Shown one piece after another: positions 1,911 to 33,400 of a stretch of 39,633 bases of DNA. Both the position numbers and the translations under genes were made by a program. Under the pieces are notes generated by a model. That model did no database searches. It was not told the DNA's origin and saw nothing but the letters and a program-made list of their open reading frames with translations. This DNA is from Reclinomonas americana ATCC 50394 (taxonomy: Eukaryota): contig PS015713.1 in assembly GCA_048213135.1 (NCBI GenBank), forward strand, positions 12,334-51,966, given 5' to 3'. Position 1 is the first letter of the stretch, and each line of letters begins with the position of its first letter.

Positions 1911-2303
1911 GTTCTCTCTCTCTCCCTCTCTCTCTCTGCGACTTGTTTTCCTCGCATTCCCACTCTCTTTAGCACTCTCTCCATCTCTCCCTCTTTGTTT
2001 TATTTGCAACCCGCTCTCCTTGTTCTACTCGTAGGTTGCGTCGTCGTCGCGCGCCTCGAGTCATTCTGTTTCTCTACGTCTGCTCGCTGCTGTGAAACTT
2101 GCTCATTGTGCTTCCCTCTTGACTCTCTGTCTCTTTTTTAGTCTCTCACCCTCACACCACGATGCCTGTCTGCATGAGTGTCTTTCTTGTCTGTCGAGGC
2201 ATTCGTTTTACTCATCCTTCTTCCGTGTTAAATTCACGCATCCCTGTCTCTCACCCCCTTCCCCTTCATTCCTTCCCCTCTTCTCCCTTCCCCCCGTCCG
2301 CAG

Positions 2304-5085
2304 AACGAAGAACGCATTCGCGCCTGGATGATGTCGCAAGGCCTCACCCCCGACGAGGCCGACACGGCCATGCGCCGCGGCCGCCTCTTCCTCCGCAACG
2401 CGCTGCCGGAGCACCTGCAGCCAAAAGTCGACTACCTGCGCTCCATTGGCGTGCAAAACATTCGCAACGTGCTCTTCAAACGGCCGACCACGGTGGGCAT
2501 GCGGCTGGAGTCGCTCAAGGCCAAGGTCGACTTTCTCAAGTCGCAGTACGAGCTCACCGAGCCGGAGATTGCGCGGATTGTGACGAGTGCGCCGGCGTTT
2601 TTGTCGTTGAAGGTGCGTGGGAGGGAAGAGGGGAAGGGAGGAAGGAGGAAGGAGGAAGGGGAAGGGGGGGAAGGGATGGGAGAAGTCTTGCAAACGCGAG
2701 AGCACATACTCTCAACACACACGCCTCAGCTGCGTTTTGAGGACATCATCTTCCAGTCGCCCGACAGATGCACCGTGTTGCGTACAAGCATGACAAAGGT
2801 GTTGACGTCGACCAGACGCATCTGCGGGCGCATATAGAACGAGTGTCGAGCCGCATACATCCCTTCCTCTTTCTTCTCAAAATGTTGTCTGTCTTGCGTC
2901 CTGTACTCGCTCTCTTGCGCTCTCGTCGCTTCGACTCTTGTTCTCACGCTCACTGTCTCGTCTTCTTCCGCCTCCTGTCTTTCGACATGTATTTATTGTC
3001 TTCTCGATATCTGGTGCCTTCTGTGTGATCTCCTCTCTCTCTCTCTCTCCTTCTTTCTCTCTCTGCTCTCGTCTCTCCTTCTTTGCTCTCTTTCTCTCTC
3101 CGTCCCCTTCTCTCTGTACTCCGTGCTCTCTTTGTCTGTCTGCTCTGTACTATCTTGTTTTCTCTTTCCCTTCTTTTCCCTCTCCACAGTCTGCTCTCCT
3201 GCTGTTCTTTCTCTGCTCTCTTTTCCCCTTTTATTCTTTCTTTCTTCTCTCTTCTCCTTCCTTTCTCTCTGCTTCCTTCTCTTTCTTTCTCTCTTCTCCT
3301 TCTCTCTTCCTGTCCTCTCTCCGTGCTCTCCTCTCTTCTTTTCTGTTTCAGCTCCCCTTCTTCTCTCTCTGCTCTCGTCTCTCTATTTCTCTCCTTTCAC
3401 CCTCTTTTCTCTCTGCTCTATGCCCTCCTTCTCTCTTTCTGCTCTCTCTGCTCTGTGCTGTCCTTTTTCTCTCTGATCTCTCCTCTCCGAGTCTGCTCTC
3501 TCTGCCCTCTTCGTTCGTTTGTTCTCTCGTTCTCTTCTCGTTCTCTTCTCTTGTTTTCTTTCTATCTCTCAGCTCTCCTTATCTCTCTTTTTTGCTCTTC
3601 TCTTCTTCTTTTCTGCCTCTTCTCTCTACTCCCCTTCTTCTCTCTCTGCTCTCTCTTTTTTCTCCCTCCTTTCTCCTCCTTTTCTCTCTGCTCTGTGGTC
3701 TCCTTCCCCGTTTCTACTCACTCTGCCCTCTTTCTCCTTCTCTCTTTCCCGGACCCTTACTCTCTCTGAGCTCTCTCCTCTCCTTCTTTCTTTCTCTCTC
3801 TCTCTCTCACACTCCTTTCTCTTCCCTTTCCCCTGTTCTCCCTTTCCCTTCTCCTCATCCTCCCTTCCCCTGCACCCCGTCTTGCAGACGGAGAACCTCT
3901 TCCAACGCCTCAACCAATTCCTCGGCGAGCTGGGCGTCCCGGAGAGCAAACAACGCGAAACCCTCCGACGCGTCGTCCTGCGCTCCCCCGAAACCGTCGT
4001 ACGCAACCCGGACGGATTCCACGAGGTTCTTCCTCTCCCACTCTCCCTCTTCCTTCTTCCGTCTTTCTCACCTCTTCCCTTCCCCCCACAAGGTGATCTC
4101 TGTTCTGCGACGACAAGGCATCGACAGCAACGGCGTGCTAAAGATCTTCCTGCGACGACCGGCCCTGCTGGCGCTGTCGCCCGAGACGGTGGAGCGGCGC
4201 TTTGCCGTGCTGCACGCGTCGGGCTTTACGCAGCCGCAAGTGGCGGCCATGGTGTGCAAGCATCCGCACCTGTTGGAGAATGCACGGCTGCGCGAGCGCA
4301 TCGACAAGCGCATCGCCATGCTCGGCGAGTACGGCCTGTCACCCGAGGACACGCGGGCCATTGCCGTGCGGCAGCCGGACATGCTGAGCCGGCTCGACTC
4401 GAATCTCCGACCGAAGATCGTGTATCTGCGCGAGGTGTTTCACATGCAGACGCCGGCGGAGCTGGCGGCGCGTCTCGTGCGCAACGCCACCTACCTGTCG
4501 TGCAGTCTGGAGCACCGCATCGTGCCGCGCTTTGAGTTTCTGCGCCAGCAGGTGCCGGCCGAACGGCTGGTCACCCTCTCCATCACCTCGGCGCTGATCT
4601 ACACCGACGAGCTGTTTGCGAAATTCGCCGGCGCCACGCTGCAAGAGTACTTGGAGTTTCGACGCAAGCACATTCGCTCGTCGGCAACGTCGCCGGGTGG
4701 GAGTGGGGGAAGTGGTGGTGGTGGTGGTGGTGGTGGTGGTGGAGGAAGTGGTGGCGATGAGTTGGACGACATTGCGATGGAGTTGGATGTGATGCTCGAA
4801 TCGGAAGAGGCGGCGGAGAGGGTGGAGGTGGATGCGATGGATCCGGATGAGGCCAAGGCGCGGATTGCCAGTCGACGGCGGCAGCAGGAGCGGGAGATGA
4901 TGGCGTTGCAGGAGGGTGGGGAGTCGGCGGCGGCGGTGGAGGGGGAGGGGGGGAAGAAGACAAGGAGGAGGAGGACGGCGGTGAAGAAGGAAGTGGAGGA
5001 GGAGGGGGAGGAGAAGACTGTGAAGAGGAGGAGAAAGAGAAAGGGTGTGGTGGGGGAGGAGGAGGCGGAGGTGAAGAGTGGGTGA
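2304..5085 (+). CDS. mTERF-family (mitochondrial transcription termination factor-like) protein; spliced, 5' end uncertain
   Basis: Phase-0 exons 2304-2612, 3888-4025 and 4093-5085 with polypyrimidine/AG acceptors and GT donors. The spliced protein has mTERF-like repeats (LQPKVDYLRSIG, LKAKVDFL, PAFLSLK|TENL, LRPKIVYL, YLSCSLEHRIVPRFEFL, TDELFAKF) and a Gly-rich/acidic/basic tail. Confidence 0.88.
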
Positions 5086-5493: not shown

Positions 5494-8400
5494 ATGAGGT
5501 GTGTGTGTGTGTGCTGTCATGCGCATCCCTTCTCTTCCCTTCTTTCTCTCTCATGTATATTGTGCAGTCGCCAAGAGAGGAAGAAAGCATGGGAGATGGC
5601 AGAGGAGGGCAATGTGAAGGCACTGCGCGCGTTGGTGGCACGTGAGGGCGCACAAACTCTGCTCAAGAAAGAGGAGATGGCGGGCGATCGATCAGCATTT
5701 TACTATGCCACTGCCGGTGGCCATCTCTCAGTGTTGGAGTATCTGTGGGAGGAGAGTGGCGTGGGGCCACAACTTGCACGACTGGTCGATGTCAATGGCT
5801 GGACACCACTGATCGCCGCTGTCTTGCGAGGGCATCTGCAAGTGGTGGAGTGGTTACTGACCGATGAGCGACGATGTCCGCCGGAGACCGTACAGGCGGT
5901 GAGCAAGCCGAACCAGTGGACGGCACTGCATTTTGCTGCCTGTAATGGACACGAGGCCATTGCGCGCCTCCTTGCCACTCGCTTCCCCGACCTCATTCCC
6001 ATGGTCGACGACATGGGCAAGACGGCGGGTGAGTGGGCTTGCGACAATGGCAAGCAGCACGTGGCCGAGTTGCTCGGCAGCCCGTCCACGCCGCCATCGC
6101 AGCCACGCCAGGAATCTCCTCCCCCACCACCACTACCAGCAGCGCCAGCAGGTGTGTTCTCATTGTCGTCTTGAGCTGGTGGCTGATTCGTGTCCTTTTT
6201 CTCACTCACACTCTTTCTTTGTGTATTTCGTTTGCCTCTCGCCTGTGCAGAGCACGCAGTGCCGCCACGCCAGGTGAGAGACTGCGCTCTACTATCTTGC
6301 TTGCCTTTGTCTGTTTCTCATCTCGCACTGCTGTTGCGCAGGCGATTGAAGACTCGGCCTTTGTGGCACGCCAGTTTGCCGAAAAGGACGCACTCATCGC
6401 CCAACTCCAGCGCGATCTTGCCGCAGCACAGCAGGAGCGACAACAAGAGCGGCGTGAACACAAAGACATTGTGGCTCAAATGCAACACGCCAGCGCCGAG
6501 GATTATCGAATGATCGCCCAGTTGCAAGCCAACCTTGCCGCTGAACGGCAAAAAGTGCGTGCGATGGAGGGCCAGCTGCGCTCACTCTTCCACATGGACT
6601 TTCTCAGGTTTCTTTGGGACTTACTCTCTGCCTGTGTTCTTGCTAGAAGTCGCCTCACTCCTTTTGTTGAATGCACAGCGACCGCCGTCCCATCTTGATG
6701 CTTACAGAGGTCGTGCACGAAATCGTTCCACTGGCACTCGGCTCACTCCTGCAACAACTCGTCGCTGATTTCTTCCCTGCCGAATTCGACATTGAGCAAC
6801 TGTGCCTTCCGACTCCACCGCCAAGGTTCTGTCAAAGAGACTGCCTTGACTGTGCTGCGTCTCACGCACTCATTGTGCCTCACAGATACTGCCGAATGAC
6901 TCTGGACAAGCGTGGCAATATTCGCCTGCGCTCTGTCGAGTTATTCCCGTCCAACTACGAGTCCATTCGCGAATTCAAGCAGAGTGGAGTGACAACGGAC
7001 ATGGATGTGTCGCTGCTGTGCACGCTGCTGTTGTACTCAACTTTCGTTCCCGTTGCTGCTTGCCGTGATGAAGATCTGCTGGAGAGCGTCGTCCGTCTCG
7101 ATCCTGACACGAACGAAGACCGTGTTACTGTGCGACTTCTCGCTGACCACGCCAAGGTTTGCTCTCCGTTTGTGTCATCGTCGTCGGCAAGTGTTCTCAT
7201 TGTTCTCACTGGTCAATCCTCGTTGCAGATCCGAGCCGTGGAGAACTTGCGGGATGTTCGCCATCGTGTGTCTCACCTGGCACGTCTATCTGCACTCGAC
7301 GACGCAGAGTACGTGAGCGTCATGCGGCTGGTACGCGACTCACTCCGCACTCTGTTCCCCGACGGAGAGCACGAAAGTATCCGTCTCTTGTTCCAAGCAT
7401 ACGAGAGTTATGACTGCGCTTGCCACATACTGTCTTCATTCTCATCTCACTCTCCCGGAGCACAGATGTGTGTCGCATCAATGTGACTGCCGAGCTGGTG
7501 ACGGAGAGAGCAGCCAGATTTGCCATTCGCGCACCCGTTGTGCCGTTCTCTGACTTGACGCCTTCGAGACAGCTTGCCGTTGGTGTGATCATCTGCATCT
7601 CTGCATGAATGAGAAGAGAGGCTCATCGTGTCTGTGTTCCATTGCAGGTCAAAATGCTGTCTTCCATGCCACTCTCCGTCTCGGCGGTGTGTCGCAGACC
7701 GTGGCATACAAGCGATACCTGGTCAGGAGGCAAGCTCGAGATGTGCAATCGGCGGACTGGAAACGCATTCACGAGAGCTTTGAGAACGAACACTCCCTGC
7801 TGATGCAACTCGAGTGCGTTCATTGTTGCACTTGAATGCTTACCGTCTTTGCTCATGTGCCTTGCACGCACAGTCACCCACACATTGTGAAACTGATGGC
7901 CGTGTGCAACGACGACCCGAGTGGCCTCGGTCTTGTTCTTGAATATGTCGGCGACGAGGACGAAGAGGAGGGCTTTGCCGAGACGATGCACGACTTGGTG
8001 AAGGATGAACGGACGACGACTCCACACCTGCTCAGTCTGCTCGTGCAAGTGGCGTCGGCGGTGGTGCACATGCACTCGCGACGAGTGGTGCATCGTGATC
8101 TCAAGCCACACAGTTGCGTCTTGGGGAGACAACAAGAGAAGAGGATTATGAGCTGGTCATACAGCAAAGTGAGTTAACGAGAGGAAGAGGAAGAGGGAGA
8201 GCAAAGCAGGCGAGTGAGGTCAGTGTGCTCGTGCAAGTGGCATCGGCGCTGGTGCTCATCGGGATCTCAAAGCCGCAGAGTTTCGTATTCGAGAGGGTAA
8301 GTGAGAGAGGGCAATGAGATGCTGATGCAAAGTGAGTTAACGAGAGAAGCGCGTTGGTGCACATGCACTCGCGGTGAGTGGTGCGTCGTGATCTCAAGCA

Positions 8401-9459
8401 ATATTTTGGAGTGGGTTATGGGAGAGAGCGTGACTGCAAGAGAAGAGGATCATGTGATGCTGATGCACGAGAGTGGATGAGAGCGACAACAGTTGAAACA
8501 ACTTCGAAGTCATCGCTATACTTCCATTCTGATTGCTGACCCTGTTTCCTCTCTCATATTCACAGACATTCTCATCAGCGAGGACCGACAGGTGGCGAAG
8601 GTCTGCGACTTTGGGGAGGCCAAGATTCACGGCACCCTCGGCAAGATGCAGTCCATCCACGGCACAGCGGCGTATGCTGCACCCGAGCCCATGTTGGAGC
8701 TGGAGGTGTGGATGATATTCTATTCTCCTGTTGTGCGCAATGAGAGTGGTGATTCTTCCTTCACCACCCGCAGTACGATGAAAGGGCGGATGTGTATGGA
8801 TTGGGCTCGCTGCTTTGGTTCATCGCCACTCGTCAAGAACCGTTTACCGGGGTGGCACTTGCGGTGATCATGCGCCACATGCACGACGGCATTCCGCCGG
8901 CCGACCTTGACGATGCTGGTGTGCGGGCAAGGGTGCCGGAGGAGATTCGCAATCTGATTCGGCAGTGCTGGGTTGCGTGTTGGTGAAGAAGCTGGTGTGG
9001 CTGGGAGAGGTGGCTGCTCATTGCGCTCGCGTGTTATGCAGAGGCCGCAAGCAACACGCGTGTCGGCATCGTATGTGCTGGACGAATTGAGGCGCTTGAG
9101 CGAGGCGGCAGCACTGGCTGTGGGAGGATTTGGACCGACGGGCCGTTCACTGTGAGCGGGAGAGTGATGGGGCTGCTGCAAGCGAAGTCGGCGGTGCGCA
9201 TGGCTGCATCTTACACACTCGCTCATCTTCCTCGCTCACACGCTGTTGTTGATCATACAGGTGCGTGGATCAGCGAGACGCTCGTCGCCCCGCCGCCGAG
9301 CAGCTGGCAAGCGAGGCGCGCCACTTGGCGGCACTGTCGGCAGCGTCGAGCATGCGTGGTGTGCGCGTCACATGCCTCGTGTGGCCACCTAATGTTTCGC
9401 TTGTGTGCGCAAGAGGTGGTTCGGGCAGTGCCTGGTGTGTCGTGTGCTGGTCGACCTAG
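5494..9459 (+). CDS. Ankyrin - coiled coil - putative HEPN (DZIP3-like) - protein kinase, paralogue A
   Basis: Phase-consistent exons 5494-5498 (ATGAG), 5568-6151 (ankyrin), 6251-6273, 6342-6607 (coiled coil), 6679-6825, 6886-7156, 7229-7406, 7466-7582, 7648-7813, 7874-8112, 8566-8705, 8774-8971, then 9042 to either the stop at 9155 or a splice to 9261-9459. Motifs TPLIAA/TALHFAA, DMDVSLL, RHRVSH, VAYK, HRDLKPHN, DFG, GTAAYAAPE, DVYGLG. Confidence 0.88.
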
Positions 9460-9819
9460 TCGATTGGTGAACTGCTGGATGTCACTCGTACCTGGCGCCG
9501 CAGTGACTGGAAGGAGAAGGTGGAGGAGGAGTGTGAATGGAAGATGCTTGTGTGACGATCGCGACGACTTGTGACTTGAATGATAACCGTGAACTGCATT
9601 CGGAAGCAGACAGATAGTGGCAGCACCGACGAATACGGACGGAAAGAGAAGGAGACTGCGGTGGAGTGGAAGAGAATGAGAGTGAGCAGAAAGCAAAGAA
9701 GAGAGCATATTAGTACCGCATTAAGTTGACAGTGACTTTGCATCACAGAATGCATCACGCTCTTCCTCTCACTCTCTCTCAATGTGTGCATGTGTTTATG
9801 TGTGTAAGAGAGTGATGCA

Positions 9820-9891
9820 GTATATAAGTTGTCTCTGCCGAAAAAAGTCTTGCTTATCATGCATCTCTCCATTCTCGTCGTTGCAAACTGT

Positions 9892-9900
<9 letters not shown>
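9820..9900 (-). repeat. Dispersed intergenic element (cagtttgc(a/g)acg...aatggagagatgcat core) next to a (CA)n tract
   Basis: The reverse complement matches segments at about 28910, 33110 and 33320. Confidence 0.7.
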
Positions 9901-9968
<68 letters not shown>

Positions 9969-10115
9969 TCACAGACAGAGACACACACTCTCTCAGAGAC
10001 ACACACTCTCTCACGCGCACGCGTCTCTCCTCTACATCGGATTGACTGATGAATGTCCTGTGTCATGAAGGCACACTCTCACGCAGAGAGAGGGAAGAAG
10101 AAGAAGTAGGAGACC

Positions 10116-13100
10116 ATGAGGCGAGTGTGTCTTTGTTATGTGCTTCTCTTCTCTTCCCTTCACTCTGACGATTGTTTCTTGCCTGCAGTCAACCACAGAG
10201 GAAGAAAGCATGGGAGATGGGAAAGGAAGGCGACGTGGATGCACTGCGCGAGTTGGTGACTCGTGAGGGCTCACAGCCTCTATTGACAGAGATGTATGCC
10301 TTTGGTGGTTCGGCATTCTACTATGCCGCTCGTTATGGGCAGATCTCAGTGTTGAGGTACTTGTGGGAGGAGAGTGGTGTCGGACCACCACTCGCACATG
10401 TTGTCGACAGAGATGGCTGGACGCCACTGATGGCGGCTGCTGAGAGTGGACATGAGCATGTAGTGGAGTGGCTGCTGGCCGATGAGCGACGGTGTCCGTG
10501 GCTGATGCGGGCAGTCGACAAGGTCTCACGGACGGCACTGCATTGGGCTGCCGTGAATGGCAACATGGACGTTGTGCGACTCCTCGCCACTCGCTATCCC
10601 GACCTCATTCCGCTGGTCGACAGCGAGGGCAAGACGGCGGCTCAGATGGCGCGCGATTTGGATCACCAGCAAGTGGTCGAGTTGCTCGACCGCTTCGCCA
10701 GCGGGGAAGAGCGACAGCAACAGCAAGCGGTGGCAGGTGTAGTTCATTGGCGTCTTGTGCAGATGGTTCTTCTCCACTCACAGCCCGTGTCCGTACCAAA
10801 CCCACAGTGTCTGCGCATCAGGTGAGAAACCTTGTCTCCTCGCATGGTGACTCCCGCTCTCAAGTGTTTACTTCCGCACAGGCGATTGACGACGCGCGCG
10901 AGCTCGCCGACCAGAAAGTAATTAACGCCCAGCTCCAGCACGATCTTGCCGCAGCGCAGCAGGAGCGACAGCAGCAGCAGCGAGAGTGGGATCTTCAGCG
11001 ACGAGAGCACGAAGACCTTGTTGCTCAACTGCAGCGAACCATCGCTGAGTGCAGTCACACTCTGGTGGAGCAGCAAGCGGAAGTGCAGCGTGCTCATGCT
11101 GCGGAGCAGCAGAGGACTGATCTCTTGCTAGAAGAACTCGCTGCTGAACGGCGAAGAGTGGTTGAGATGGAGGGCCAGCTGCGCGCACTCTTCCACATGG
11201 ACTTTCTCAGGTTTCTTTGGGACTTACTCTCTGCCTGTGTTCTTGCTAGAAGTCGCCTCACTCCTTTTGTTGAATGCACAGCGACCGCCGTCCCATCTAT
11301 ATGCTCACCGAAGTCGTGCACGAAATCATTCCCCTGGCACTCGGCTCCCTCCTGCAACATCTCATTGCTGATTTCTTCCCTGCCGAATTTGACATTGAGC
11401 AACTTTGTCTCCCAGCTCCACCGCCGAGGTGCTGAAATGGCGACTGCCTCTGATGTGCTGCGTCTCACGCGCTCATTCTGCCTCACAGATACTGTCGGAT
11501 GACCCTGGACAAGCGTGGCAATATTCGCATGCGCTCCGTCGAGCTTTTCCCGTCATGCTTCGAGGCGATCCGCGACTTCAAGCGGAGTGGCATGGCCACG
11601 GGCATGGACGTGTCGCTGCTGAGCACGCTGCTGTTGTACACAACTTTCGTTCCTGTCGCCGAGTGCCGAGATGAGGACCTGCTTGAGAGCGTCGTCCGTC
11701 TCGATCCTGTCACGAGCAAAGACCATGTTGCTGTGCGACTTCTCGCTGACCCCGCCAAGGTATGCTCTCCGCTTGTGCTATCATGGTCGACAGGGTGTTC
11801 TCATTGTTCTTCAATTTTCGTTGCAGATCCGAGCCGTGGAGAACCTACGAGATGTGCGCCATCGCGTGTCTCACCTGGCACGTCTATCTGCTCTCGACGA
11901 CGCGGAGTATGTGGGCGTCATGCGGCTGGTTCGTGACTCGCTCCACACTCTGTACCCCGACGGACGGCACGAGAGTATTCGTCTCTTGTTTGAAGCATAC
12001 GACAGTTGTGCCAGCACTTGCCCACTTGATGTCTTGTTTCCTTCTCATTGTCCTTAAGCACAGACGTGTGTCGCATCAATGTGACGGCCGAGCTGGTGAC
12101 GGAGAGAGCAGCCGGATTTGCCATTCGCGCCCCAATTGTGTCGTTCTCTGACTTGAAGACCTCGAGACAGCTTGCCGTCGGTATGGTCATCTGCGTATGC
12201 CTGCACCACTGCATGGATGTGAAGAGGCTCATCGCATCTACCTTTTGTCGCAGGTCAAAATGCTGTCTTCCATGCCACTCTCTGTCTCGGTGGCGAATCG
12301 CAGACCGTGGCGTACAAGCGATACTTTGTCAGTCCGCAGGCTCGCGATGCGCGAACGGGGGACTGGAATCGCGTTCACGCGTGCTTTGAAAACGAGCACT
12401 CTCTGTTGATGCAACTTGAGTTGCGAGCTTTCTTGCACTTGAATGCTGCCTCCTGTCACTTATGCGCCTCCCCTCCACAGTCACCCGCACATTGTAAAAC
12501 TGATGGCAGTGAGCAATGACGACCCGAGTGGTCTCGGTCTCGTTCTTGAATACGTCGGTGGCGAGGATGGAAGAGGGATTGCCGAGACACTGTACGACCT
12601 GGTGAAGGATGAGCGGACGACGACTCCACACCTGCTCCGCCTGCTCGTGCAAGTGGCGTCGGCGGTGGTGCACATGCACTCGCGACGAGTGGTGCATCGT
12701 GATCTCAAGCCTCAGAGTTGCGTCTTGGGGAGACAACAAGAGAAGAGGATTATGAGATGCTGATACAGCAAAGTGAGTTAATGAGAGGAAGAGGGAGAGT
12801 CAAGCAGGCGAGTGCGATCAGTGCTCGTACAAGTGGTATCTGCGGTTGTGCACAAGCACTCGCGTCAAATGCATCAACAGGATCTCCAGCCAAGATTGTT
12901 GCTTTGGAGAGAGTGATGGGAGACAGCAAGAGAAGATGTTGATACAAAGTTAGTTAATGAGAGAAAGAGGGAGAGACAACCAGACGAGTGCGAACAGTGC
13001 TCGTACAAGTTGTATCGGTGGTTGTGCACATGCACTCGCACGTCGAATGCGACAACGGGATCTCCAGCTATAGAGTTTTGTTTTCGAGAGAGTGATGGGA

Positions 13101-14240
13101 GAGAACGAGACTGCAACAGAAGAGGATTACGAGATGCCTATGCACAAGAGCGGATGAGAGACACAACAGTGGAAAAAAACTTCAAAGTCAATCACTGTTC
13201 TCTCACACTGCTGACCCTCTTCCCTCTGCACGGTCACAGACATTCTCATCAGCGAAGACCGACTCGTGGCCAAGGTGTGCGACTTTGGTGAGGCCAAGAT
13301 TCACGGCACTCTCGGCAAGATGCAGTCGAACCACGGTACGGCGGCATACGCTGCGCCGGAGGCCATGTTGGATCAGGAGGTGCACTGATGACATTCTCCT
13401 TTCTTGCTATGCGGAATGAGAATGGCGTTCTCTCATGTTCTTTCCTTCGCCACTCGCAGTACGATGAAAGGGCAGATGTGTATGGACTTGGCTCGCTGCT
13501 CTGGTTCATCGCCACTCGCCAGGAACCGTTCAGTGGAGTGACACTACAGGCGATTCTGCAATCTATGCGGGCCGGTGTTCTCCCCGCCAATCTTGACGAT
13601 GAGGCTGTGCGGGCAGGAGTGCCGGAGGATATTCGCAATCTGATTCGGCAGTGCTGGGTTGCGTGTTGGTGAAGTAGCTGGTGTGGCTGGGAGAGGTGGC
13701 TGCTCATTGCGCTCGCGTGTGATGCAGAGGCCGCAAGCCACTCGCGTGTCGGCATCGTATGTGCTGGACGAATTGAGGCGCTTGAGCGAGGCGGCAGCAC
13801 TGGCTGTGGGAGGAGTTGGACCGGCGGGGCCATCACAGTGAGTTGGAGAGTGACGGGCTGCTGCAAGCGAAGTCGGCGGTGCGCATGACTGCATGATAAA
13901 GAATCGCTCATTTTCCTCGCTCACACGCTGTTGTTGATCATACAGGTGCGTGGATCAGCGAGACGCTCGTCGGCCCACCGCCGAGCAGCTGGCAAATGGG
14001 GCGCGCCACTTGGCGGCACTGTCGGCAGCGTCGAGCATGCATGGTGTGCGCGTCAGATGCCTCGTGCGGCCACCTCATGTTTCGCTTGCGTGCGCAAGAG
14101 GTGGTTCGGGCAGTGCCTGGTGTGTCGTGTACTGGTCGACCTGGTCATTGGTGAACTTCTGGATATCACTCGTACCTGGCGCTGCAGTGTGTGGAAGGGT
14201 GTATGAGGAGGAGGAGTGTCAAAGGAGGATGCTTCTGTGA
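10116..14240 (+). CDS. Ankyrin - coiled coil - putative HEPN - protein kinase, paralogue B
   Basis: Same exon/phase structure as paralogue A: 10116-10120 (GC donor), 10189-10736, 10784-10821, 10882-11210, 11282-11428, 11489-11759, 11827-12004, 12064-12180, 12254-12419, 12481-12716, 13240-13379, 13460-13657, then 13728 to either the stop at 13841 or a splice to 13946 onward. Motifs RHRVSH, VAYK, HRDLKPQN, DFG, GTAAYAAPE. Confidence 0.88.
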
Positions 14241-14563: not shown

Positions 14564-15419
14564 ATGCAAGCCGACGGAGACGACCTCTCCTCCTACTCTG
14601 CTGCACAAGTGAGCACGTACACCCCCCACTCACCTCACCACTCTCTCTCTCTCTCCACACTCATTCATACTCTCTCTTCTTCTCTCAAGGAAACTCGCGC
14701 AGAGTGCGCGCGAGTGGCGCAATCAGTGCTCTCGTCTGTGAGTCCGCTCTTTGGACCTGGAGGGCGCAAGGTGTTGTGGCAGTCGAGTGTGCAAAGGTGC
14801 GGGTGAGAGAGAGAGAAGGGGGAGGGTGAGGGAGAGAGAGGGAGAGAGGGAAGGAGAGAGAGAGGGAAAGGAGATGGGAGGAATGAGAGCGAGAGAGAGA
14901 GAGGAGGGGTGAGAGAGGAGAGTGAGCGTGGTGTACGACAGTCCGCGTTGGCCGTACGAGACGAGAGAAGAGGTATTAGAGAGAGTGCGTGATACGAGAC
15001 AAGTGAGTTATGAGAGGAAGGAGGGAGAGNNNNNNNNNNNNNNNNNNNNNNNNNNNNNNNNNNNNNNNNNNNNNNNNNNNNNNNNNNNNNNNNNNNNNNN
15101 NNNNNNNNNNNNNNNNNNNNNNNNNNNNNNNNNNNNNNNNNNNNNNNNNNNNNNNNNNNNNNNNNNNNNNNNNNNNNNNNNNNNNNNNNNNNNNNNNNNN
15201 NNNNNNNNNNNNNNNNNNNNNNNNNNNNNNNNNNNNNNNNNNNNNNNNNNNNNNNNNNNNNNNNNNNNNNNNNNNNNNNNNNNNNNNNNNNNNNNNNNNN
15301 NNNNNNNNNNNNNNNNNNNNNNNNNNNNNNNNNNNNNNNNNNNNNNNNNNNNNNNNNNNNNNNNNNNNNNNNNNNNNNNNNNNNNNNNNNNNNNNNNNNN
15401 NNNNGTACGACGTACGTGA

Positions 15420-16657: not shown

Positions 16658-17110
16658 TTGCCTGGCCACCTTCCNNNNNNNNNNNNNNNNNNNNNNNNNN
16701 NNNNNNNNNNNNNNNNNNNNNNNNNNNNNNNNNNNNNNNNNNNNNNNNNNNNNNNNNNNNNNNNNNNNNNNNNNNNNNNNNNNNNNNNNNNNNNNNNNNN
16801 NNNNNNNNNNNNNNNNNNNNNNNNNNNNNNNNNNNNNNNNNNNNNNNNNNNNNNNNNNNNNNNNNNNNNNNNNNNNNNNNNNNNNNNNNNNNNNNNNNNN
16901 NNNNNNNNNNNNNNNNNNNNNNNNNNNNNNNNNNNNNNNNNNNNNNNNNNNNNNNNNNNNNNNNNNNNNNNNNNNNNNNNGTTCTCTCTCTCTCTCGTCG
17001 TCTCTCTCTCTCTCTCTCTCTCTCCTCTTCTCTCTCTCGTCTTCGTTCGTCGGTCGTCTCTGTTTCTCTCTCTCTCTCTCTCACGTGGCATTCTCTCTCT
17101 CTCTCGCTTG

Positions 17111-19762: not shown

Positions 19763-20579
19763 TCAATCAAACAGATGAAAGGCGAACAGGCGCTGCCGGT
19801 CGGCGAGGAACACGCGGTCGTACTGCGGCTCGTACACCATCGACTGCGGCGTGCGCGGCATGCGCTGCGTCTTGACGACCTCGCCCGTGGCCGTCGAATA
19901 CACGGTGACATTCGACGAGTCCTCGCCCGTAGTCACAATGCCGGCCCCGGCCGCGCAAAACGTGGGATGGTGAATGGCGTGGCCGCACACAAATTGCGCC
20001 CCCGAGTGTTTTTTCAGGGCGAAACTGCGGCGAGCAATGAGTACACACCCTAAATAATGAAGAGAAGGGTGGGGCACGCAACAGCATGCGATTGGGAAAG
20101 CGAATGTCAAAGAGGTGGATTTCGCGATCGAACGAGGAGGAGGCGAGGAGGGTCGATCGCGGCTCCGGTGCCCAGCACACCGAGTTGACGACGCGGTCGT
20201 GCGCGTCGGGAATGGAGACGATGGGTGGCGAGGAGGTGGCGAGGCGCGTGTCGACCACTTGGATCACGCGGTCGTTGCCGGTGGAGGCGAAAATGTGCGG
20301 AGTGGAGAATTTGACGGCTGGGGGAGGGGAGGGGGGAAGGGGAGGGGGAAGGGGAGGGGAAGGGGAAGGGGAAGGGGAGGAGAGGGGAGGGAAGGGGTGA
20401 GGGCGTGAAGGGATCGGAAGAGGGAGAGAAGGAGTGGAACGCACATTTCACAACCCCCGAGTGGAGATCTGTATAATGCTGCAGTTTCACAATGCCGGAG
20501 GGGGTGAGGCACGACAAGTGCACCTGAGCGGAACAAGTCAGTCCACGGGCAGACTCTCCATTCCGTTACCCTGTGCGCA

Positions 20580-23647: not shown

Positions 23648-23877
23648 GCTCCGCCGCGCGTCGAACGAAACGAACGAACGAACGAAACGAACGAACGTAA
23701 CGACGACGTACGACGTACGTACGTACGTACGTACGTACTACNNNNNNNNNNNNNNNNNNNNTAAGGAAGAAGAACGTACGTCGTCGTTACGGTACCGAAC
23801 GGAAAGGGAAGGTAGTACGTACTACGTACGACGTAGTCGTCTCTACTCTCCTTCTCTCTCTCTCTCTCTCTCTCTCG

Positions 23878-24942: not shown

Positions 24943-27900
24943 TCACTGCAACTCCATTGTGAATCCACCCAGCTTCTCTCGCAAATCACCCATCACCGCT
25001 CGAGCAGTCGCCGCCGTCGGTCGTCCGTCTTCATCGTACAGCGACATGCATCTGCTGCAGAGATGAGACGCAATCCGCAATATCACAGACTCCGTTTGCT
25101 ACTCTCACACGCAACTGCACTCCCAGTCGCAGCATTCCGCGTGCCACATCTGCTGGCCACTCACCCGCCGTGGCATCGCTCTTCTTCACCGCATCCACGG
25201 CATCGAGCGCGCGCTCCCACCGCGGCGCACGATCCACCAGCACATGCGCATCGCACCCCGTCAGCAGTTGCAGCAGAATCAACCCCACGGCGTGCATGTC
25301 CATCGACTTGCGGATATTGCCGGAGCGCAAGAAGAGCGGATCAATGTAATGTGGGGTGCCAGCATGAGAAGATGTGCGTCGGTGGGTCTGTAGCACAAGA
25401 AGGCAAGAGAGACGACGGTGAGACGCAATAATCTCGTGAGAAGCAGTAAGCGTTTCTCCCGCATTGCCGCTCACCTCCCCGGCATCAAAGATGCGCGCAA
25501 TACCGAAATCCGCGAGACGCGGCTCGCATCGATGGTCGAGGAGAATGTTGGAGGGTTTGAGATCGCGGTGAATAATGTCGTTCTAAAATCAAGCAGCAGG
25601 AGGTGAGAAGGGATGACGAATGTGAATGAATGATGGCTATCTCAATGAAGAGAAGCAAGAGCAGGAGAGAAAGACGAGAACGATTGGCAAGGAACGAAGA
25701 GTTCAACAGAATGTCATGCTCGGTGGGAGGATGCGCAAGCAACCCACTGGCGAGAATGCAACAGTGATGCGAGAATGGTCATGAAGTGAATCGCACCCCG
25801 CACAACTCGAGAATGGGAGTGATAAGTCCAGGGTGATCAAAACAATTCAGAGGAGAAAGAATAGCCTCCCAAGAAGACAGGACGGAAGAAGAGCCACGAT
25901 GCGGTGATCAAACCAATCAACAACACCACAGAGGAGACAGATAGTCTCCGAAGAAGACACAACAGAAAAGAAGTGCCACGCTCACCTGATGCAAAAAGCA
26001 CACGCCCTCGACAATGCCGAGGCCAATCTGCACACGTTCAAGCACCGTCAACGGCAACATGCCGTCTGCGCGCTTCAGCAATCGCACTTCCAGATCGTGA
26101 CCACTGTGACAGGAGAGCACAGAGAGACGAATGAGAGTCAGAGTGACCTGATCAGACAAGCGTTGTCATTCTATGATGCTCATTCTCACTTCTTGCGTCC
26201 TCTCATCAAATGCACCGCTAGCCCACTCCACACGCAAGTCTCACCCTCGTCAACACCGACCTGCTCGTTTCCCTTCCTCCGATCGCCTTCCTTTCTTTCC
26301 GCTAAGCCTGTCACTCTCTCTCTCCCACACACACACAATCGCACTTCCAATCAGCTCGTTTCCGATCGCCTACTTCACTTTCCGCTCAGCCTGTCACTCT
26401 CTCTCTCTCTCTCCCACACACACAATCCGCACTTCTAATCAATCCGTTTCCCCCTCCTCTGATCGCCTTCTTCTCTTTCCGCTCAGCCTGCCTCTCTCCT
26501 TCTCTCTCTCTCTCTCTCAGGCAAATCTCCAGCCACACAGTCTTCCATTCGGGCTTTGCCCTCCCGAGTCCTCACAAGCACCATCGCCTCGCCTTCACGG
26601 TTTTTCGTGCACTTCTCTCACACCTCACGATCTTCCATTTCAGTCTCAGTCTCACTCTTTCCCTCGTTAACATCCACTCACCGCATGGCTCGATACACCA
26701 GGCAACGCTCCCACACGATATTGTCATCGTCCACAAGCGTTGAGTATCCGAGCAGTGGAACAAGTCGACGGTGGCGTAGTTGACCAATGGTGTTCAACTG
26801 GGAGCGTGTGAGAACCGAGAGAGACTCTTGCTTTTCTCCCTTCTCCATCATCCCTCACCTCCGCATCATACGACTCCACCGCCCACGGTGCACTGCTGTC
26901 CAGTCGTTTGATCGCCACATCTTCGTCGATGAGATAGCAGAGATACACCTCACCCTGACCACCCTCGCCGGCCTTCAGTCTCGACGAGAAGTACTCGGTG
27001 GCGGTCACCACGTCGCTCCAGGCGTACTCACGAAGGCGATTGGGCATGGAGGCTGCATTCATGTCGGTAAAATGAGTGTGCGATAGAACGTGTGTGCAGG
27101 GGAAATGGTCGTGGATCGCGCTCACCATGGCGAGATTCGAGCTCACGAGCGAGAACGGCAGATCGCTGACGCTCGGCGGCAAGTAACTGCTCCAACTCCT
27201 CACGTGCACGGGCGTGTTGCTCCAGATCGCACTGCAGCTGTGCGACTCGATGCTGCGCTTCCGCATGAGCTCCTTGCCATTGTGAAACGACCAGTTGCAG
27301 CTGGGCATTAACTTGCTGCCACTCCGCATTGTCCTGCTGCAGCACAGCATTCTTCTGCTGTCCCTCAGCATTGTCGTGCTGCAGCTCCAAGTTCGCTCGT
27401 CGTAGTTGTGCGATCTCTTGCTGAGTCTCAGCAGTGACTCGCTGCAGTAAGCCATCCTTCTGTTGCTCTTCGATCTTGCGTTGTTCCACGTCCGTGACAG
27501 CACGGTGCAGTTGAGCCACAATGTCTTCGTGCTCACGTCGCTGTCGGTCCCACTTCCGCTGCTGCTGCTCTCGCTCCTGCTGCGCTGCGGCGAGATCGCA
27601 CTGCAGTTGGGCAATTTGAGTGTCCTTGCCGACGAGCTGCAGCTGGCGTGCCCCAGCGCCGAGTTCGTCAATTGTCTACACAGATGCAGAACACGCGTGT
27701 GGGAGTCATTGGTTGCACGCATGTAGAGATGCAAGAATACCACAATCGATATGACACTGCTTCTCACCTGTACCTGGGATACTGTCACTGCATGGTTTCA
27801 AGGCGACAAACAAAGGATACACACATGGGAATGTGTGTGGGGAGAACACAATCAACAGACAACAATGAGTTCAAACCTTGTGCTGATCGGCGGGGAGAAC

Positions 27901-28556
27901 GAATTCGAAGTAGTTGAATTCGGCGTGCTTCTGCTTCTTGATCCAACGCCAGGCCGTCGAGCAAATCGGCCACTTCGTCCTTCTTGTTTTCGCGTGCCAA
28001 CAGAGCCGCCGTCTTTCTCTTCTTCGCTTCCATTGGAATGAGTTCTGGGAAGCGAGTGGCAAGAAGATGGACTATAGCTTTGTGGCCTTTCTCGGCAGCC
28101 AAATGCAGCGCAGATGACCGGTCATCATTGGTGACACACACCATCTCCGGCGGACACCGTCGCTCATCGGCCAGCAACCACTCCACCACTCGCAGGTGCC
28201 CATTGAAGGCCGCCGTCATGAGTGGCGTCCAGCGAGTCTTGGTGCTAATCTGTGCGAGCTGCGGCCCAACGCCACTCTCCTCCCACAAGAACTCCAACAC
28301 AGAGAGATGGCGATTCGCAGCAGCGTTGTAAAACGCCGAACAGCCAAACTCATCCATCTCCCCCTCCTGCAGCAGGGTCTCTGCACCCTCGCGTGCCACC
28401 AAAGCACGCAGTGCCTCCACGTCGCCGAGTTGCGCCAGCTCCCATGCTTTCTTCCGCAGCTGCTGACTGCCACTCCGAGCACAATTGTGAGGGAGCAAGT
28501 GAGGAGAAGAGACGAGAAAGTGAGACAACACACACATACACACACACACACCTCAT
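24943..28556 (-). CDS. Ankyrin - coiled coil - IRAK/Pelle/RLK-like protein kinase, paralogue C
   Basis: Exons 28556-28552 (ATGAG), 28466-27877, 27787-27768, 27675-27126, 27052-26859, 26797-26682, 26103-25986, 25582-25475, 25387-25116, ~25051-24943, all phase-compatible. Motifs [84 protein letters not shown]. Confidence 0.9.
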
Positions 28557-29648: not shown

Positions 29649-32600
29649 CGCCTCCGGAGCAACAGTTGCACCGTAAATTCTCTGGTGAGTGTGTATGGTG
29701 ACACTGGAGAACACTCGCTCACACACCCCCCATACACGGAGAGGTGTTAGATGAGGCAGTGATAGCATGAGGAGAGAGGTGACGCATAAGGAGGCTGTTG
29801 TTCACACGATGACCTCTCTCTCTCTCTGCTCCTCCCGCTCATTCTGCGTCTCTTCATGGCCATCCTCCTCCTTCTTCTCCTCTCTCTGTTCACTTGCTCG
29901 CTCGCTCTCTCGGTCGATCGCAATCCCTTTCTCCTCTTATTTGTAACTCAACACAACTCCAGGTCTCTCGCGCACTCTCTGTCTTCGTCTTTTGCCCTCG
30001 CTCACAATCTCTCGCCTCTGGCTGCCCGCCCCTCGCTCTCACTTCGTAATCTCTCTCTCTCTCTCTCTCCCTCCCCCTCGTTGTGCGCACACAGAATGGC
30101 TGACGCAGTATCGCGCGGAGCACAAGACTGCCGCACTCGCGCTTGACGCCGTCGCTGCCAATGTGCTTGTGTGGGCGGGCCGAGGAGGCAGTGTGCCCAT
30201 TGCCGAGCTGGCCGCCGGAGCGCCAATGGCCAGCAAGAGTATCGAGATGGCTCAGGGCAGTGCTGTCACTCTCACACTGCCCACTGTCGTGTCGGACCCG
30301 ACGCTGCTCGACTTTCGTCTGTTTGCTGGCGATCGCGGCGACCCGCTTGCTACATCGCCTGCCGCGACAGCGGTGCTTGAGAACGCACGTGATGGGCGAA
30401 TGGCTGCGCTCATCTCTGTGAGCGGTGCCGGCAAAACCAAGTGTATATTTGACGTGCTGCGCCGCCGCTACGGTGTGTTTCTGGACATGAGCGGTGGGCG
30501 GCTGGGCAAGGCGGATGGCGGCGTTCAGGTGACTCTCGCGGCGATGCGTAAACTGGGCGGCAAGATTGCCGACAGTGATCGTCTGGGAGATGCATGGATG
30601 GACGAGTTCGCGCTCCTTCTTTCGGCTCGTCTGGCCACGATGCTGGTGCTACATGGCGCCGGTCTGCTGAAGTCACCCGAGCACTGGCTCCTGCTGCAGT
30701 TGCATGGTACCGTGGTGGACGAAGGCTTCACGGGCGAGTTGGTTTTCGCACTGCGCTCGCTTGATGGACTTGTACCGTCTGCCCTATGCACGGGATTGTG
30801 CCGATTGACACGTGCAACGTTGACTGCCGACGAGTATCCCATTGTGGCTGTTGATGAGGCTGGTGTCCTTCTCCGTGTGCTGGAGAATCGCTTCTTGGAA
30901 AAGAATGTTTTGTTTCTATTATCCTCTTCATTCTTCGCTTGCTCCCTTCACTCGCTCACCGTTCTCCCTCAACGCACAGCGCGGAAGCAACCACAGTGCG
31001 CTTAGCGTCGTGGCGCGCTACCTGTTCAGCCTCAACGACGCCGGCAGCGTTGTGGGTGGCACATCCTTGTCGCTGCGCGATGCCGCTCTGCTCGAATCGG
31101 CCACGGCGGGCAAACCGGAACGCCTACATCGACTCGGCCATTTGCTGCGCCCATGGCTCACTGATGACATCAAGGCGGTGCTGCAACGGTGCGGCATCAC
31201 CGACTGCACCGGTGCTGATGCCGCGTCGATGCAAGGTGAGCAAGGGATTGTGCGATTTTCTCTCATTGTTGTTGTGTTCTTTCTCCCCCTCTGACATTCT
31301 CGCAGGCCGCGCGCGCCTCACGATGCGCTACCTGCAACTCCGGTGGGATGGCAAGTCGTCTGCGGGTGCAGTTCAGGAGGTCCTCACGGAGGATGCCAAG
31401 ACCGGGAGCCCGGGCAGCCTGGCGCACCAGCTTGTGTCTGCGTCACGCTTGCCTGAGCGTACATTGCTGTTGGAGGTAATGCGTTCTTCTCGTCCCCACG
31501 TCCGCGGCTGGTTCCGCATCGTTCGTCTTCTTTTGTCTCATACTCGTGATTTCTGGTGCACAGCTCGCTCGTGAACTCTATGTGGCCGAGTACTTCGATT
31601 TTGGTGCCGTTCTCGACGATTGCCCTATGCCGTTGTCCTTCATTGATGCCTTGGAGCGTGGTCTCTGCTTTGTGCTATCACCCGAGGGTACCAGGCTGGT
31701 GTCGGTGGCCAACACGCGGTCGGCATATCCGAACAGCGAGTGGAATGGCAGCGTGTTGTACTCCTGCGAGGTGCGGCAGAATTCATGGGCATTGTATCTG
31801 TCGTTTTCGACTTCTGATGCGCTTCTCTTTGCCTGACTTCTCAGCCATTCGTGTTGGACGTCGTCCGTTGTGAGCTGCGAGACGCTGCCGCCACGGTGGT
31901 GGCCAGTCTCCGGCAGCCTATACAACCGCAGATTGATTTCGCGCTAGTGTCGTTTGTAGCCGTGTGTCTGTGTGAGGGTGACAAGCATCCAGATACATGC
32001 GGCGTCACAGCTGCTCTCGCGCGCAACTTCTTGCAGCCGTTGCGTGAAGTGTTTAACATTTGTATTTCTCTCTCTCGGAGAAGCAGAGAGCCTCATTTGT
32101 CTTTCCTCCCTACGCCGTTAGGTCTGCTGACGATGCCACTTGCGACAACGAGGAGTCATCATCGCCGACGCAGATGATGCACAGCATCCTGTCGAGTCCG
32201 ATGATGAAGTTGCGTCGACCTGTAATCTGGGATTTGCGCGAGTCGAGAACACTCGCCTATCGAGTGGCGGTGGCGCATGCAGTGCTGGACGACGTGTATG
32301 GCGTGGGCCGTGGCGACCGGGATGCCATTCCGCCGGCCACTGGCGCCACTCCCATTGCCTTTGTACACCGCTGCTTGGAATTGGCGCGAGCGCAGGAGAA
32401 GGACGGAGGTGAGACATCGGAGCGCGTATGGCAGCGCAAGCCGTTTGCTGCTCTCCTCCCGACTGGAGGGCGCAGGAGTGGCCCCAACATTGTCGCCTGT
32501 GTGCCGCTGGCCTCCGATCCCACCAAGTTTGTGCTGCTGCTCGTGGCCTTCAAGACCAAGGGCGGCGGTGAATCAGTGAGCAAGAAGAAGGCTGTTGCGT

Positions 32601-32976
32601 GCGTGCAGGCCACGGATCCGCGACTCAACCGCGTAGCAAAGCAACTCGTCGAGGCTTTGAAGTCGGAGGGTGCACTTGCGGCGCTGGTGCGGGTGCATTT
32701 TGCGTTACCAGAGGTGAAGGTGGCCGTGGGCAAGAAGACGGCGGTGAGGCGGACGGGAAGAGGAGGGTGGAGGAGTAAGCGCTTCGTATTCACTCCACTA
32801 TCATTACACAGGTAACGACCAATGTGGCTCCTGGCGCATGGCCGGTGCGATGGGTGGAGGAGGAGGACACAGTGGAGGGCACAGTGCCCGAACTCGTCGT
32901 CAACGTGGATGGCAGCAACGTGGACAAGCTGGGTGTATTTACGTCGGATGCGCTGTACATGCTGCGCACAATGTAG
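29649..32976 (+). CDS. Crinkler/RHS-type P-loop NTPase with a C-terminal restriction-endonuclease-like domain; 5' exons uncertain (may extend to ~29155)
   Basis: Exons 29649-29684, 30095-30906, 30980-31235, 31306-31475, 31564-31770, 31845-~32038, ~32122-32743, 32812-32976. Walker A VSGAGKT (30418-30438), Walker B IVAVDEA, GTSLSL, G|RARLT, E|PFVL, then GPNIV...LLLVAFK and LVVNVDGSN. The family call rests on remembered motif order. Confidence 0.7.
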
Positions 32977-33074
32977 GAGAGGAAGAGTGACAGCCGGTGA
33001 CGGATCACACAGCGGCAGTGTATATCCGATCAGTTGCCGAACATCCTTGAGTCGCAGAGTGAGAGAGGCGCACT

Positions 33075-33400
33075 GCTTGTGCGTCTCTGTCTGTGCCCTC
33101 TCTCTCTGCGCACAGTTTGCGACGTCGGAAAATGGAGAGTTGCATCATGATCAACACGCAGAAGAGGGAACAAGTCGATGAAGGGCACTGTGCCACACTA
33201 TTTCACACACACATGCAGACAGACTGAGAGAGTGACAAAGAGATTAAGGGACAACTCGCAGGTTTTCTCGCATGTTTTCTGTGATCAATAATTCTCTCTC
33301 TCTCTCTCTCTCTCTCTGTGTCACTGTCTGCAACGACGAGATATGGATTTGTCAAGAGCAAGATCTTTCTCGGAAGATGGAACTCATGCATATGCGCAAG
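33075..33400 (+). repeat. Dispersed intergenic element; right direct repeat (33075-33290) plus a second partial copy (~33320-33400)
   Basis: Matches 28850-29095; the second copy resembles the reverse complement of 9820-9900. Confidence 0.75.

Follow-up and report, generated by a model that had tools for sequence, protein, structure and literature searches.

Whether ankyrin repeats, a protein kinase and a HEPN-type RNase domain have been joined on one chain outside the RNase L family is the question raised by two neighbouring genes of Reclinomonas americana ATCC 50394. They were analysed within a stretch of 39,633 nucleotides (contig PS015713.1, positions 12,334 to 51,966), hereafter the window. 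The original prediction, made from the letters of the DNA, had proposed the order ankyrin, coiled coil, HEPN-like domain and kinase in tandem copies, and an architecture of ankyrin, coiled coil, middle domain and kinase was indeed found in both of our 12-exon gene models.

Two tandem genes of twelve exons

The two tandemly duplicated genes are intact, with 12 exons each. The spliced exons of copy 1 form a single open frame, in which the only stop is terminal, and all 11 introns are of the GT..AG type, with lengths of 59-99 nt and one exception of 453 nt. Copy 2 follows the exon plan of copy 1, again with an open frame and GT..AG introns, the start of its micro-exon (10808-10821) being uncertain. 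Blastn comparison of the two copies gave a DNA identity of 74-86%. The features are as follows.

5596..9155, plus strand: copy 1 gene, 12 exons, 804 aa, both ends uncertain
5596-6151, 6251-6273, 6342-6607, 6679-6825, 6886-7156, 7229-7406, 7466-7582, 7648-7813, 7874-8112, 8566-8705, 8774-8971, 9042-9155, plus strand: copy 1 exons
5596..6151, plus strand: ankyrin-repeat exon, copy 1 (Pfam Ank_2 E = 2.9e-22, Ank 7.7e-17)
6342..6607, plus strand: coiled-coil exon, copy 1 (Q/E/R/A/L-rich, heptad-like)
6679..7406 (6679-6825, 6886-7156, 7229-7406), plus strand: middle HEPN-like domain, copy 1, three exons, 198 aa spliced
7466..9155, plus strand: linker and Ser/Thr kinase domain, copy 1 (Pkinase, PK_Tyr_Ser-Thr on three exons)
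10217..13841, plus strand: copy 2 gene, 12 exons, 809 aa
10217-10736, 10808-10821, 10882-11210, 11282-11428, 11489-11759, 11827-12004, 12064-12180, 12254-12419, 12481-12716, 13240-13379, 13460-13657, 13728-13841, plus strand: copy 2 exons
10217-10736, plus strand: ankyrin-repeat exon, copy 2, counterpart of the copy 1 exon 5596-6151
10882-11210, plus strand: coiled-coil exon, copy 2
11282..12004 (11282-11428, 11489-11759, 11827-12004), plus strand: middle HEPN-like domain, copy 2
12064-13841, plus strand: linker and Ser/Thr kinase domain, copy 2

The predicted span of 5494..14240 had implied firmer gene ends than we find; the two models end at 9155 and 13841, the second of them short of 14240. 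The start of copy 1 was placed at ATG 5596, a 5' end that is uncertain because a further ATG in the same frame, at 5494, and the conserved leader QRKKAWE offer an alternative; for the 3' gene end no certain model was obtained. A RING finger considered at the 3' end was rejected, its Cys/His pattern being divided between two frames and lacking Pfam support. No Rfam families were found in the window. The scaffold contains 991 N and many microsatellites, and the locus itself displays tracts of gene conversion and one long intron filled with repeats.

Ankyrin and coiled-coil heads and their paralogues

The ankyrin part is the fast-evolving one, with a dN/dS of 0.61 between the copies and 98/185 identical residues in its exon. 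In copy 1 it is nearer to the ankyrin units of minus-strand paralogues in the window (60-68%) than to copy 2 (56%), and the ankyrin part is a mosaic with other members of the local family. A protein search with the ankyrin exon brought up nothing beyond 48 ankyrin proteins of a generic kind, whose identity did not exceed 42% and none of which carried PF18738. The Pfam matches of the coiled-coil exon were weak, and each was to a family of coiled coils (NYD-SP28 E = 0.0087, Nucleoprot-TPR 0.028 and TMF_DNA_bd 0.09), and we infer a coiled coil from these matches and the heptad-like sequence rather than from a dedicated predictor.

Two paralogues lie on the opposite strand of the window.

25034..28552, minus strand: paralogue with ankyrin, coiled coil and a different kinase, without middle domain
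33680..38288, minus strand: paralogue with three ankyrin units, coiled coil and the second kinase type as at 25034..28552, without middle domain

The paralogue at 25034..28552 was identified by tblastn of the ankyrin and coiled-coil exons and matches Pfam Ank_2 (1.4e-17) and Pkinase (1.3e-16); in its translations the kinase, IRAK/Pelle-like by eye, follows directly after the coiled coil. Like the tandem copies, both paralogues have a coiled coil and an ankyrin unit that carries the QRKKAWE leader; they are devoid of the middle domain and possess another kinase, for which no tblastn match to the copy 1 kinase exons was observed at E<=1e-3. The locus shows a local family swapping modules, with common ankyrin/coiled-coil heads and two effector cassettes within 39 kb. 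Such module shuffling is typical of conflict genes.

The kinase domain

The three kinase exons of copy 1 matched Pkinase with E values of 1.4e-12, 6.5e-6 and 8.8e-4. The motifs VAYK, HRDLKPxN, DFG and APE are legible, and the glycine loop is degenerate (VGGQNAV). The profile match together with the catalytic K, E, HRD, DFG and APE places the domain in the eukaryotic protein kinase superfamily (PF00069 / PF07714), and the kinase looks active as judged from its residues. Among solved structures, the best relatives of kinase exon 9 are Nek7 (9e-6), PKR and AMPK; its match to IRE1 (1e-4) covers residues 52-78 around HRD only. In the copy 1 model the chain continues for about 37 residues after the kinase, and no Pfam match to a KEN domain (Ribonuc_2-5A) was detected after the kinase in the 3' frames tested.

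A constrained middle domain with HEPN-like motifs

In copy 1 the middle domain sits between the coiled-coil exon (6342-6607) and exon 7466-7582, where the kinase starts (PFSDL...). Two short introns of the GT-AG type split the domain at equivalent sites, namely 6826-6885 and 7157-7228 of copy 1 and 11429-11488 and 11760-11826 of copy 2. The copy 2 introns must be spliced, because reading through them would meet a stop in frame and shift the frame by 67 nt. The two middle domains are identical in 170/199 residues, and with a dN/dS of 0.21 over 199 codons, compared to 0.22 for the kinase (dS 0.38-0.41), the domain is held by purifying selection to the same degree as the kinase.

The motif strings quoted in the original prediction were present in both copies where it had placed them.

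7004..7030, plus strand: DVSLLCTLL, copy 1, match to D[IV][TS]LL..LL
11607-11633, plus strand: DVSLLSTLL, copy 2, match to D[IV][TS]LL..LL
7259..7276 (copy 1) and 11857-11874 (copy 2), plus strand: R-H-R-V-S-H (R-x4-H)

D[IV][TS]LL..LL, which we take to be a mark of DZIP3-type HEPN domains, has just these two matches in the six frames of the whole window. The stretch IRAVENLRDVRHRVSHLARLSALDDAEY begins at 7229 in copy 1 and at 11827 in copy 2, and a single E-x3-R (ESVVR) is located 35 residues upstream of R-x4-H in both; HEPN domains typically have an acidic residue ahead of the motif, as E-x3-[KR] in helix 2. Across 200,000 shuffles of the middle domain, D[IV][TS]LL..LL arose by chance in 0.0155% (~1.6e-4 per shuffled domain), R-x4-6-H in 81% and E-x3-[KR] in 86%. 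Since R-x4-6-H is this frequent, only D[IV][TS]LL..LL exceeds chance and R-x4-H alone is weightless; its retention in both copies is likewise uninformative, as the copies are 90% identical in that exon.

In both copies R-H-R-V-S-H has the R-x4-6-H spacing of the HEPN superfamily, and its R is followed by one of the polar residues found there (N, D or H). The His at this position had been regarded as less usual than Asn; it poses no problem, given that the HEPN survey, in its available sections, describes the residue after the motif R as mostly N, D or H. The same sections locate the motif where helix 3 ends (PMC3710099). For the pearl oyster, the accessible part of a second study reports 131 DZIP3-like HEPN proteins, with R-x4-6-H in 194/202 and R-x4-H as the commonest spacing (PMC9646362).

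Evidence on the HEPN assignment

The proposed DZIP3-type HEPN gained one independent lead, from language-model neighbours, and none from profiles. A feature search of the ESM Atlas with the middle domain reached a top score of 0.94, with 192/256 features in common, and its neighbours were mollusc clusters with HEPN_DZIP3, DUF4559 and HEPN_Swt1. The PF18738 (HEPN_DZIP3) set was the largest (13/30 hits), followed by the DUF4559 set with 5 and a set carrying both with 1; the HEPN_Swt1 cluster scored 0.89, and 8 of the 10 best family-bearing hits belonged to a common family or clan. The family obtained in this way is the rare one that had been named beforehand from motifs alone. The recognition value was 2124, the mark of 2300 being attained by 91 in 100 known-family proteins, and exon A of the middle domain, searched alone, scored 0.79 and returned no family. 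The PF18738 profile appears to miss many relatives, because only 11-38% of the members of the Atlas clusters carry the family.

Pfam gave no match to HEPN_DZIP3 at E<=10, either for each exon or for exon A, intron and exon B together, so that this check, suggested with the original prediction, did not confirm it; the exons and unspliced frames stayed below the curated PF18738 cut-off of 27 bits, and the unspliced frames of the middle domain matched no Pfam family at E<=1. None of the PADLOC and NCBIfam profiles match it. No relative of the middle domain was found by phmmer among 1.84 billion representative proteins, or by word-indexed searches of longer proteins and, at E<=10, of proteins of similar length. 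The sole phmmer match, a repeat protein aligned to a read-through intron tail, was discarded as spurious. Searching the PDB by sequence and by profile gave weak unrelated matches and nothing HEPN, and of the 88 and 316 pattern matches from two metagenome scans tblastn confirmed 0. Further family members for R/H conservation were found in neither the protein nor the metagenome searches, and PF18738 was not found in E. coli K-12 or 14 control genomes.

AlphaFold2 models of the unspliced copy 1 frame, with introns read through and the copy 2 exons added as extra rows, were unusable (pLDDT 45.2 and 43.2); in both of these low-confidence models R-x4-H closes a long helix at its C-terminus, with a loop and another helix after it, which is the kind of placement described for HEPN domains, whose core consists of four helices running up and down. 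Complex prediction with two copies of the middle domain scored 0.01. Taken from sequence-derived data, the HEPN reading of the middle domain is only partly supported. According to Table 1 of the survey, DZIP3-type HEPN domains occur in fusion with ankyrin and have undergone expansion into lineage-specific arrays, the protist Capsaspora being among the examples (PMC3710099).

Interpretation of the middle domain

We tentatively favour a local ankyrin/coiled-coil signalling family in which the helical domain of ~200 aa before the kinase is a divergent HEPN that belongs to the DZIP3/CXorf38/Swt1 group and retains R-x4-H, a reading that we consider possible rather than probable. The domain may instead be no HEPN but a lineage-specific helical domain, for example a regulatory bundle or one of the executioner type, such as precedes the pseudokinase of MLKL, and R-x4-H would then be a product of chance. 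HMM, sequence and fold evidence for HEPN was not obtained from Pfam, PADLOC, NCBIfam, phmmer or the PDB, R-x4-6-H is common in shuffled domains, and Atlas recognition fell below the mark, with exon A alone devoid of a family. However, the Atlas neighbours are mainly HEPN families, with the family predicted in advance, the DxxLL..LL motif is improbable by chance, and a Pfam match to an MLKL-type or other helical domain is equally absent. We judge this alternative somewhat unlikely.

A HEPN-derived domain may also have no nuclease function, acting as a dimerisation, RNA- or protein-binding module that tunes the kinase, which would be the only catalytic output. The competent appearance of the kinase is in line with such a role, as are the sister genes in the window, which appear to work with a kinase alone, and several inactive or binding-only HEPN lineages are listed in the sections of the survey at hand (PMC3710099). 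On the other hand, R-x4-H with its polar residue after R is intact in both copies, in an exon with a dN/dS of 0.14, and the same sections argue that motif-keeping HEPN domains are RNases (PMC3710099); a purely non-nuclease domain is in our estimate unlikely. Finally, the sequence gaps and microsatellites, the conversion tracts and repeat-filled intron, and the 3' end without a certain model might suggest functionless genes, either decaying duplicates or assembly artefacts. Two full open frames over 12 exons each, conserved splice sites and the low dN/dS of middle domain and kinase (0.21-0.22) make this explanation extremely improbable.

If the middle domain is the divergent HEPN that we favour, the fast-evolving ankyrin repeats would recognise a partner, and the coiled coil would hold or bring together two chains. 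Pairing may put two HEPN-like domains side by side, whose R-x4-H motifs would form a putative RNase site, and may allow the kinases to phosphorylate each other, by which a single recognition event could be converted into both RNA cleavage and phosphorylation. By analogy, the proteins would work like RNase L/Ire1, with another HEPN family, another kinase and the reversed order. For both proteins the cutting of RNA, the activation by a ligand and the part in defence are putative; we know of no RNase activity for any DZIP3-type HEPN. The full proposal is that a little-sampled, non-animal eukaryote independently built a two-output immune-type receptor, convergent with RNase L/Ire1. In it a rapidly diversifying ankyrin head and the coiled coil would make two chains pair, each bearing an active kinase and, ahead of it, an RNase of the DZIP3-type HEPN family. 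This proposal we regard as quite unlikely.

An active HEPN RNase in this position would represent a second, independent union of ankyrin, kinase and HEPN nuclease in eukaryotes. It would couple a DZIP3-type HEPN to a kinase, a fusion unreported in the available sections of the 2013 HEPN survey and in the literature searched, and it could be asked whether RNase firing driven by pairing needs the kinase-then-RNase order of Ire1/RNase L. Should the middle domain prove to be something other than HEPN, we would be left with ankyrin kinases restricted to one lineage and carrying an orphan domain, a result of modest interest.

Comparison with known systems

By protein-language-model features, the nearest proteins are the DZIP3/hRUL138-like HEPN proteins (PF18738; animals, Capsaspora), which resemble the middle domain in the spacing of R-x4-H and in the polar nature of the residue next to R; ankyrin fusions and tandem immune-type arrays are known in that family, according to the accessible parts of both sources (PMC3710099, PMC9646362). 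It differs from them in that the Pfam profile is unmatched and His follows the Arg here, usually Asn there.

RNase L and Ire1 consist of a kinase or pseudokinase followed by a KEN-type HEPN RNase, and RNase L carries N-terminal ankyrin repeats in addition. Provided that the middle domain is HEPN, the proteins described here would contain the same three kinds of part as RNase L, namely ankyrin, a kinase fold and a HEPN-superfamily module, and activation by pairing of two chains is plausible there and here. Of the suggested RNase L-like inventory, however, KEN is absent, and the type of kinase is not specifically Ire1/RNase L-like. Here a coiled coil is present and the catalytic motifs of the kinase are kept, and whereas in RNase L and Ire1 the kinase comes before the RNase, the HEPN-like domain here comes before the kinase, which reverses the order. 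The likeness to RNase L is one of analogy, not of membership.

Gene organisation of the two tandem copies

The eukaryotic window has a G+C content of about 55%, with numerous (CT)n and (CA)n tracts, short GT-AG introns and four gaps amounting to 991 N in all, and an Rfam scan of the window returned zero RNA families. Two tandem paralogues, copy 1 and copy 2, with an ankyrin, coiled-coil, middle domain and Ser/Thr kinase plan, lie among the following features.

Features of the window (coordinates, strand, description)
1454-1743, 15030-15404, 16675-16980 and 23742-23761: N gaps
2232-5082, +: mTERF-family gene (2.3e-21), an ordinary neighbour
5596-9155, +: copy 1 gene, 12 exons, 804 aa, both ends uncertain
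10217-13841, +: copy 2 gene, 12 exons matching the copy 1 plan, 809 aa, ends uncertain
19770-20447, -: WD40 gene fragment, an ordinary neighbour
28552 to 25034, -: paralogue with ankyrin and coiled-coil head
29947-33144, +: large gene of several exons between the ankyrin-kinase genes, encoding a GAGKT motif that resembles a P-loop; none of its open frames matched a Pfam family at E<=0.01
38288 to 33680, -: paralogue with three ankyrin units in a row and a coiled coil

The exon models were assembled manually, using changes of frame, splice signals and a comparison between the copies, which are 74-86% identical by blastn, much of the introns included. All introns in both copies are GT..AG; ten per gene span 59-99 nt and the single long one 453 or 523 nt. 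This long intron lies within the kinase (8113-8565; 12717-13239) and consists of degenerate repeats derived from the last part of the exon before it, with a repeat period of 176 nt (1.9 copies) in copy 2 and blastn echoes of the HRDLK-coding stretch in copy 1. An in-frame ATG at 5494 and a conserved QRKKAWE leader were found upstream of the modelled copy 1 start. Such a leader, QRKKAWE(M/L), precedes every ankyrin unit directly 3' of a CAG acceptor-like site (5560-5600, 10180-10220 and other unit starts), and the 5' exon or start codon modelled for each gene is therefore provisional.

Identity between the copies is still 89-97% 3' of the modelled stop. A RING-like Cys/His pattern was observed in this region (9335-9467 and 14020-14203), split over two frames, with C-x2-C-x5-C-x-H in one and C-x2-C-x8-C-x2-C in the next, one base out of frame; a stop lies just upstream of the second half in copy 1, and the frame is open in copy 2. 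Synonymous differences are most numerous in the frame from 9261 (5 of 11 changed codons). Pfam gave no support for the RING-like region, and the pattern may represent either a RING in decay or a last exon that the models do not resolve.

Domain architecture and constraint

The first exon encodes ankyrin repeats (Pfam Ank_2, 2.9e-22) and three exons further 3' gave Pfam protein kinase matches, the kinase translations showing VAYK, HRDLKPxN, DFG and APE with a degenerate glycine loop. The exon at 6342-6607 is heptad-like and Q/E/R/A/L-rich; because its Pfam matches are only weak hits to coiled-coil families, we refer to it as a putative coiled coil. The three exons between coiled coil and kinase give a spliced middle domain of 198 aa, and neither of its two introns breaks the reading frame or carries a stop in copy 1; their copy 2 counterparts do, the 60-nt intron containing a stop and the 67-nt intron shifting the frame, so that both must be removed. 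The low dN/dS of this region between the copies shows that the middle domain is real and functional.

Identical residues and dN/dS, copy 1 versus copy 2
Ankyrin: 98/185; dN/dS 0.61 (ankyrin exon)
Linker and coiled coil: 56/96; dN/dS 0.45 (coiled coil)
Middle domain: 170/199; dN/dS 0.21, dS 0.38 (199 codons)
Kinase: 271/324; dN/dS 0.22

Probable relationship of the middle domain to HEPN

The original prediction of a DZIP3-type HEPN RNase was made from motifs, and the strings and coordinates that it quoted are correct in both copies. In 200,000 shuffles of the middle domain, used as a chance test, D[IV][TS]LL..LL was present in 0.0155% of shuffled domains, R-x4-6-H in 81% and E-x3-[KR] in 86%, so the first is the only motif of the three above chance. 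Published accounts are compatible with the HEPN reading: the HEPN motif is described as lying at the end of helix 3, with N, D or H mostly next after R (PMC3710099), and R-x4-6-H is reported in 194 of 202 pearl oyster DZIP3-like HEPN proteins, R-x4-H being commonest (131; PMC9646362).

The query for an ESM Atlas feature search was a 173-aa translation running from exon A through the unspliced intron into exon B. The top hit, a mollusc cluster with PF18738 HEPN_DZIP3 in 11% of its members, had a score of 0.94 and matched the query in 192 of 256 features, a first hit which the Atlas's own calibration treats as a lead, not proof. By set, the hits comprised HEPN_DZIP3 (13/30), DUF4559 (5/30) and both (1/30), together with a bacterial HEPN_Swt1 cluster (0.89), and among the ten best hits with an assigned family, eight had a family or clan in common. 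DUF4559 is, we take it, the CXorf38 family. The HEPN survey assigns the CXorf38 family to its Swt1 group (PMC3710099). The weight of the Atlas result is its agreement with the family named beforehand from motifs alone.

On the other side, the Atlas recognition value was 2124, below the 2300 mark, and exon A of copy 2 alone reached 0.79 with no family. The proposed Pfam HEPN_DZIP3 check left the middle domain unmatched at E<=10, as did the Pfam, PADLOC and NCBIfam profile libraries as a whole. No relatives were found by phmmer among 1.84 billion representatives, by word-indexed protein searches or by PDB searches; the single phmmer hit, a repeat protein aligned to the tail of the read-through intron, was rejected. 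The HEPN interpretation thus has partial support, from the HEPN_DZIP3, DUF4559 and HEPN_Swt1 neighbours in the Atlas, with no profile match or sequence relative found. We regard the middle domain as a fairly probable HEPN relative, and its activity as a putative RNase as possible but somewhat doubtful.

Local family and exchange of modules

At least two more genes in the window share the ankyrin and coiled-coil head, both on the minus strand, and in both the coiled coil leads directly into a different kinase without the middle domain. This second kinase type is IRAK/Pelle-like by eye. The minus-strand heads resemble the copy 1 ankyrin exon more closely (60-68%) than copy 2 does (56%), and dS is higher in the ankyrin part (0.58) than in the middle domain (0.38); the histories of heads and effector cassettes are therefore in part distinct. 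The stretch 6563-6662 is 99% identical to copy 2, the intron after the coiled-coil exon (6608-6678 versus 11211-11281) is identical at 71 of 71 bases, and the 3' ends (8954-9453 versus 13640-14140) are 93-97% identical, with dS of about 0.4 in the exons between. These near-identical stretches point to gene-conversion tracts. Conserved effectors, fast heads, shuffling and tandem copies are typical of conflict-related families, which does not itself prove a defence role.

Comparison with known systems

DZIP3-type HEPN domains are reported to be fused to partners including ankyrin, RING and NACHT, with expansions of the family in Nematostella, oyster and Capsaspora (PMC3710099; PMC8260672). Kinase is not listed among these fusions in the 2013 survey (PMC3710099), and our literature searches found no description of a DZIP3-type HEPN-kinase fusion. 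The closest solved relatives of the kinase are Nek7, PKR and AMPK, followed by PknB, TAK1 and RIPK1, and IRE1 aligned only around HRD. Unlike RNase L and Ire1, which carry KEN after the kinase, the gene pair showed no KEN domain 3' of the kinase in the gene model or by Pfam on the 3' frames. The likeness to RNase L and Ire1 lies in the kinds of parts and in a plausible logic and is not due to descent.
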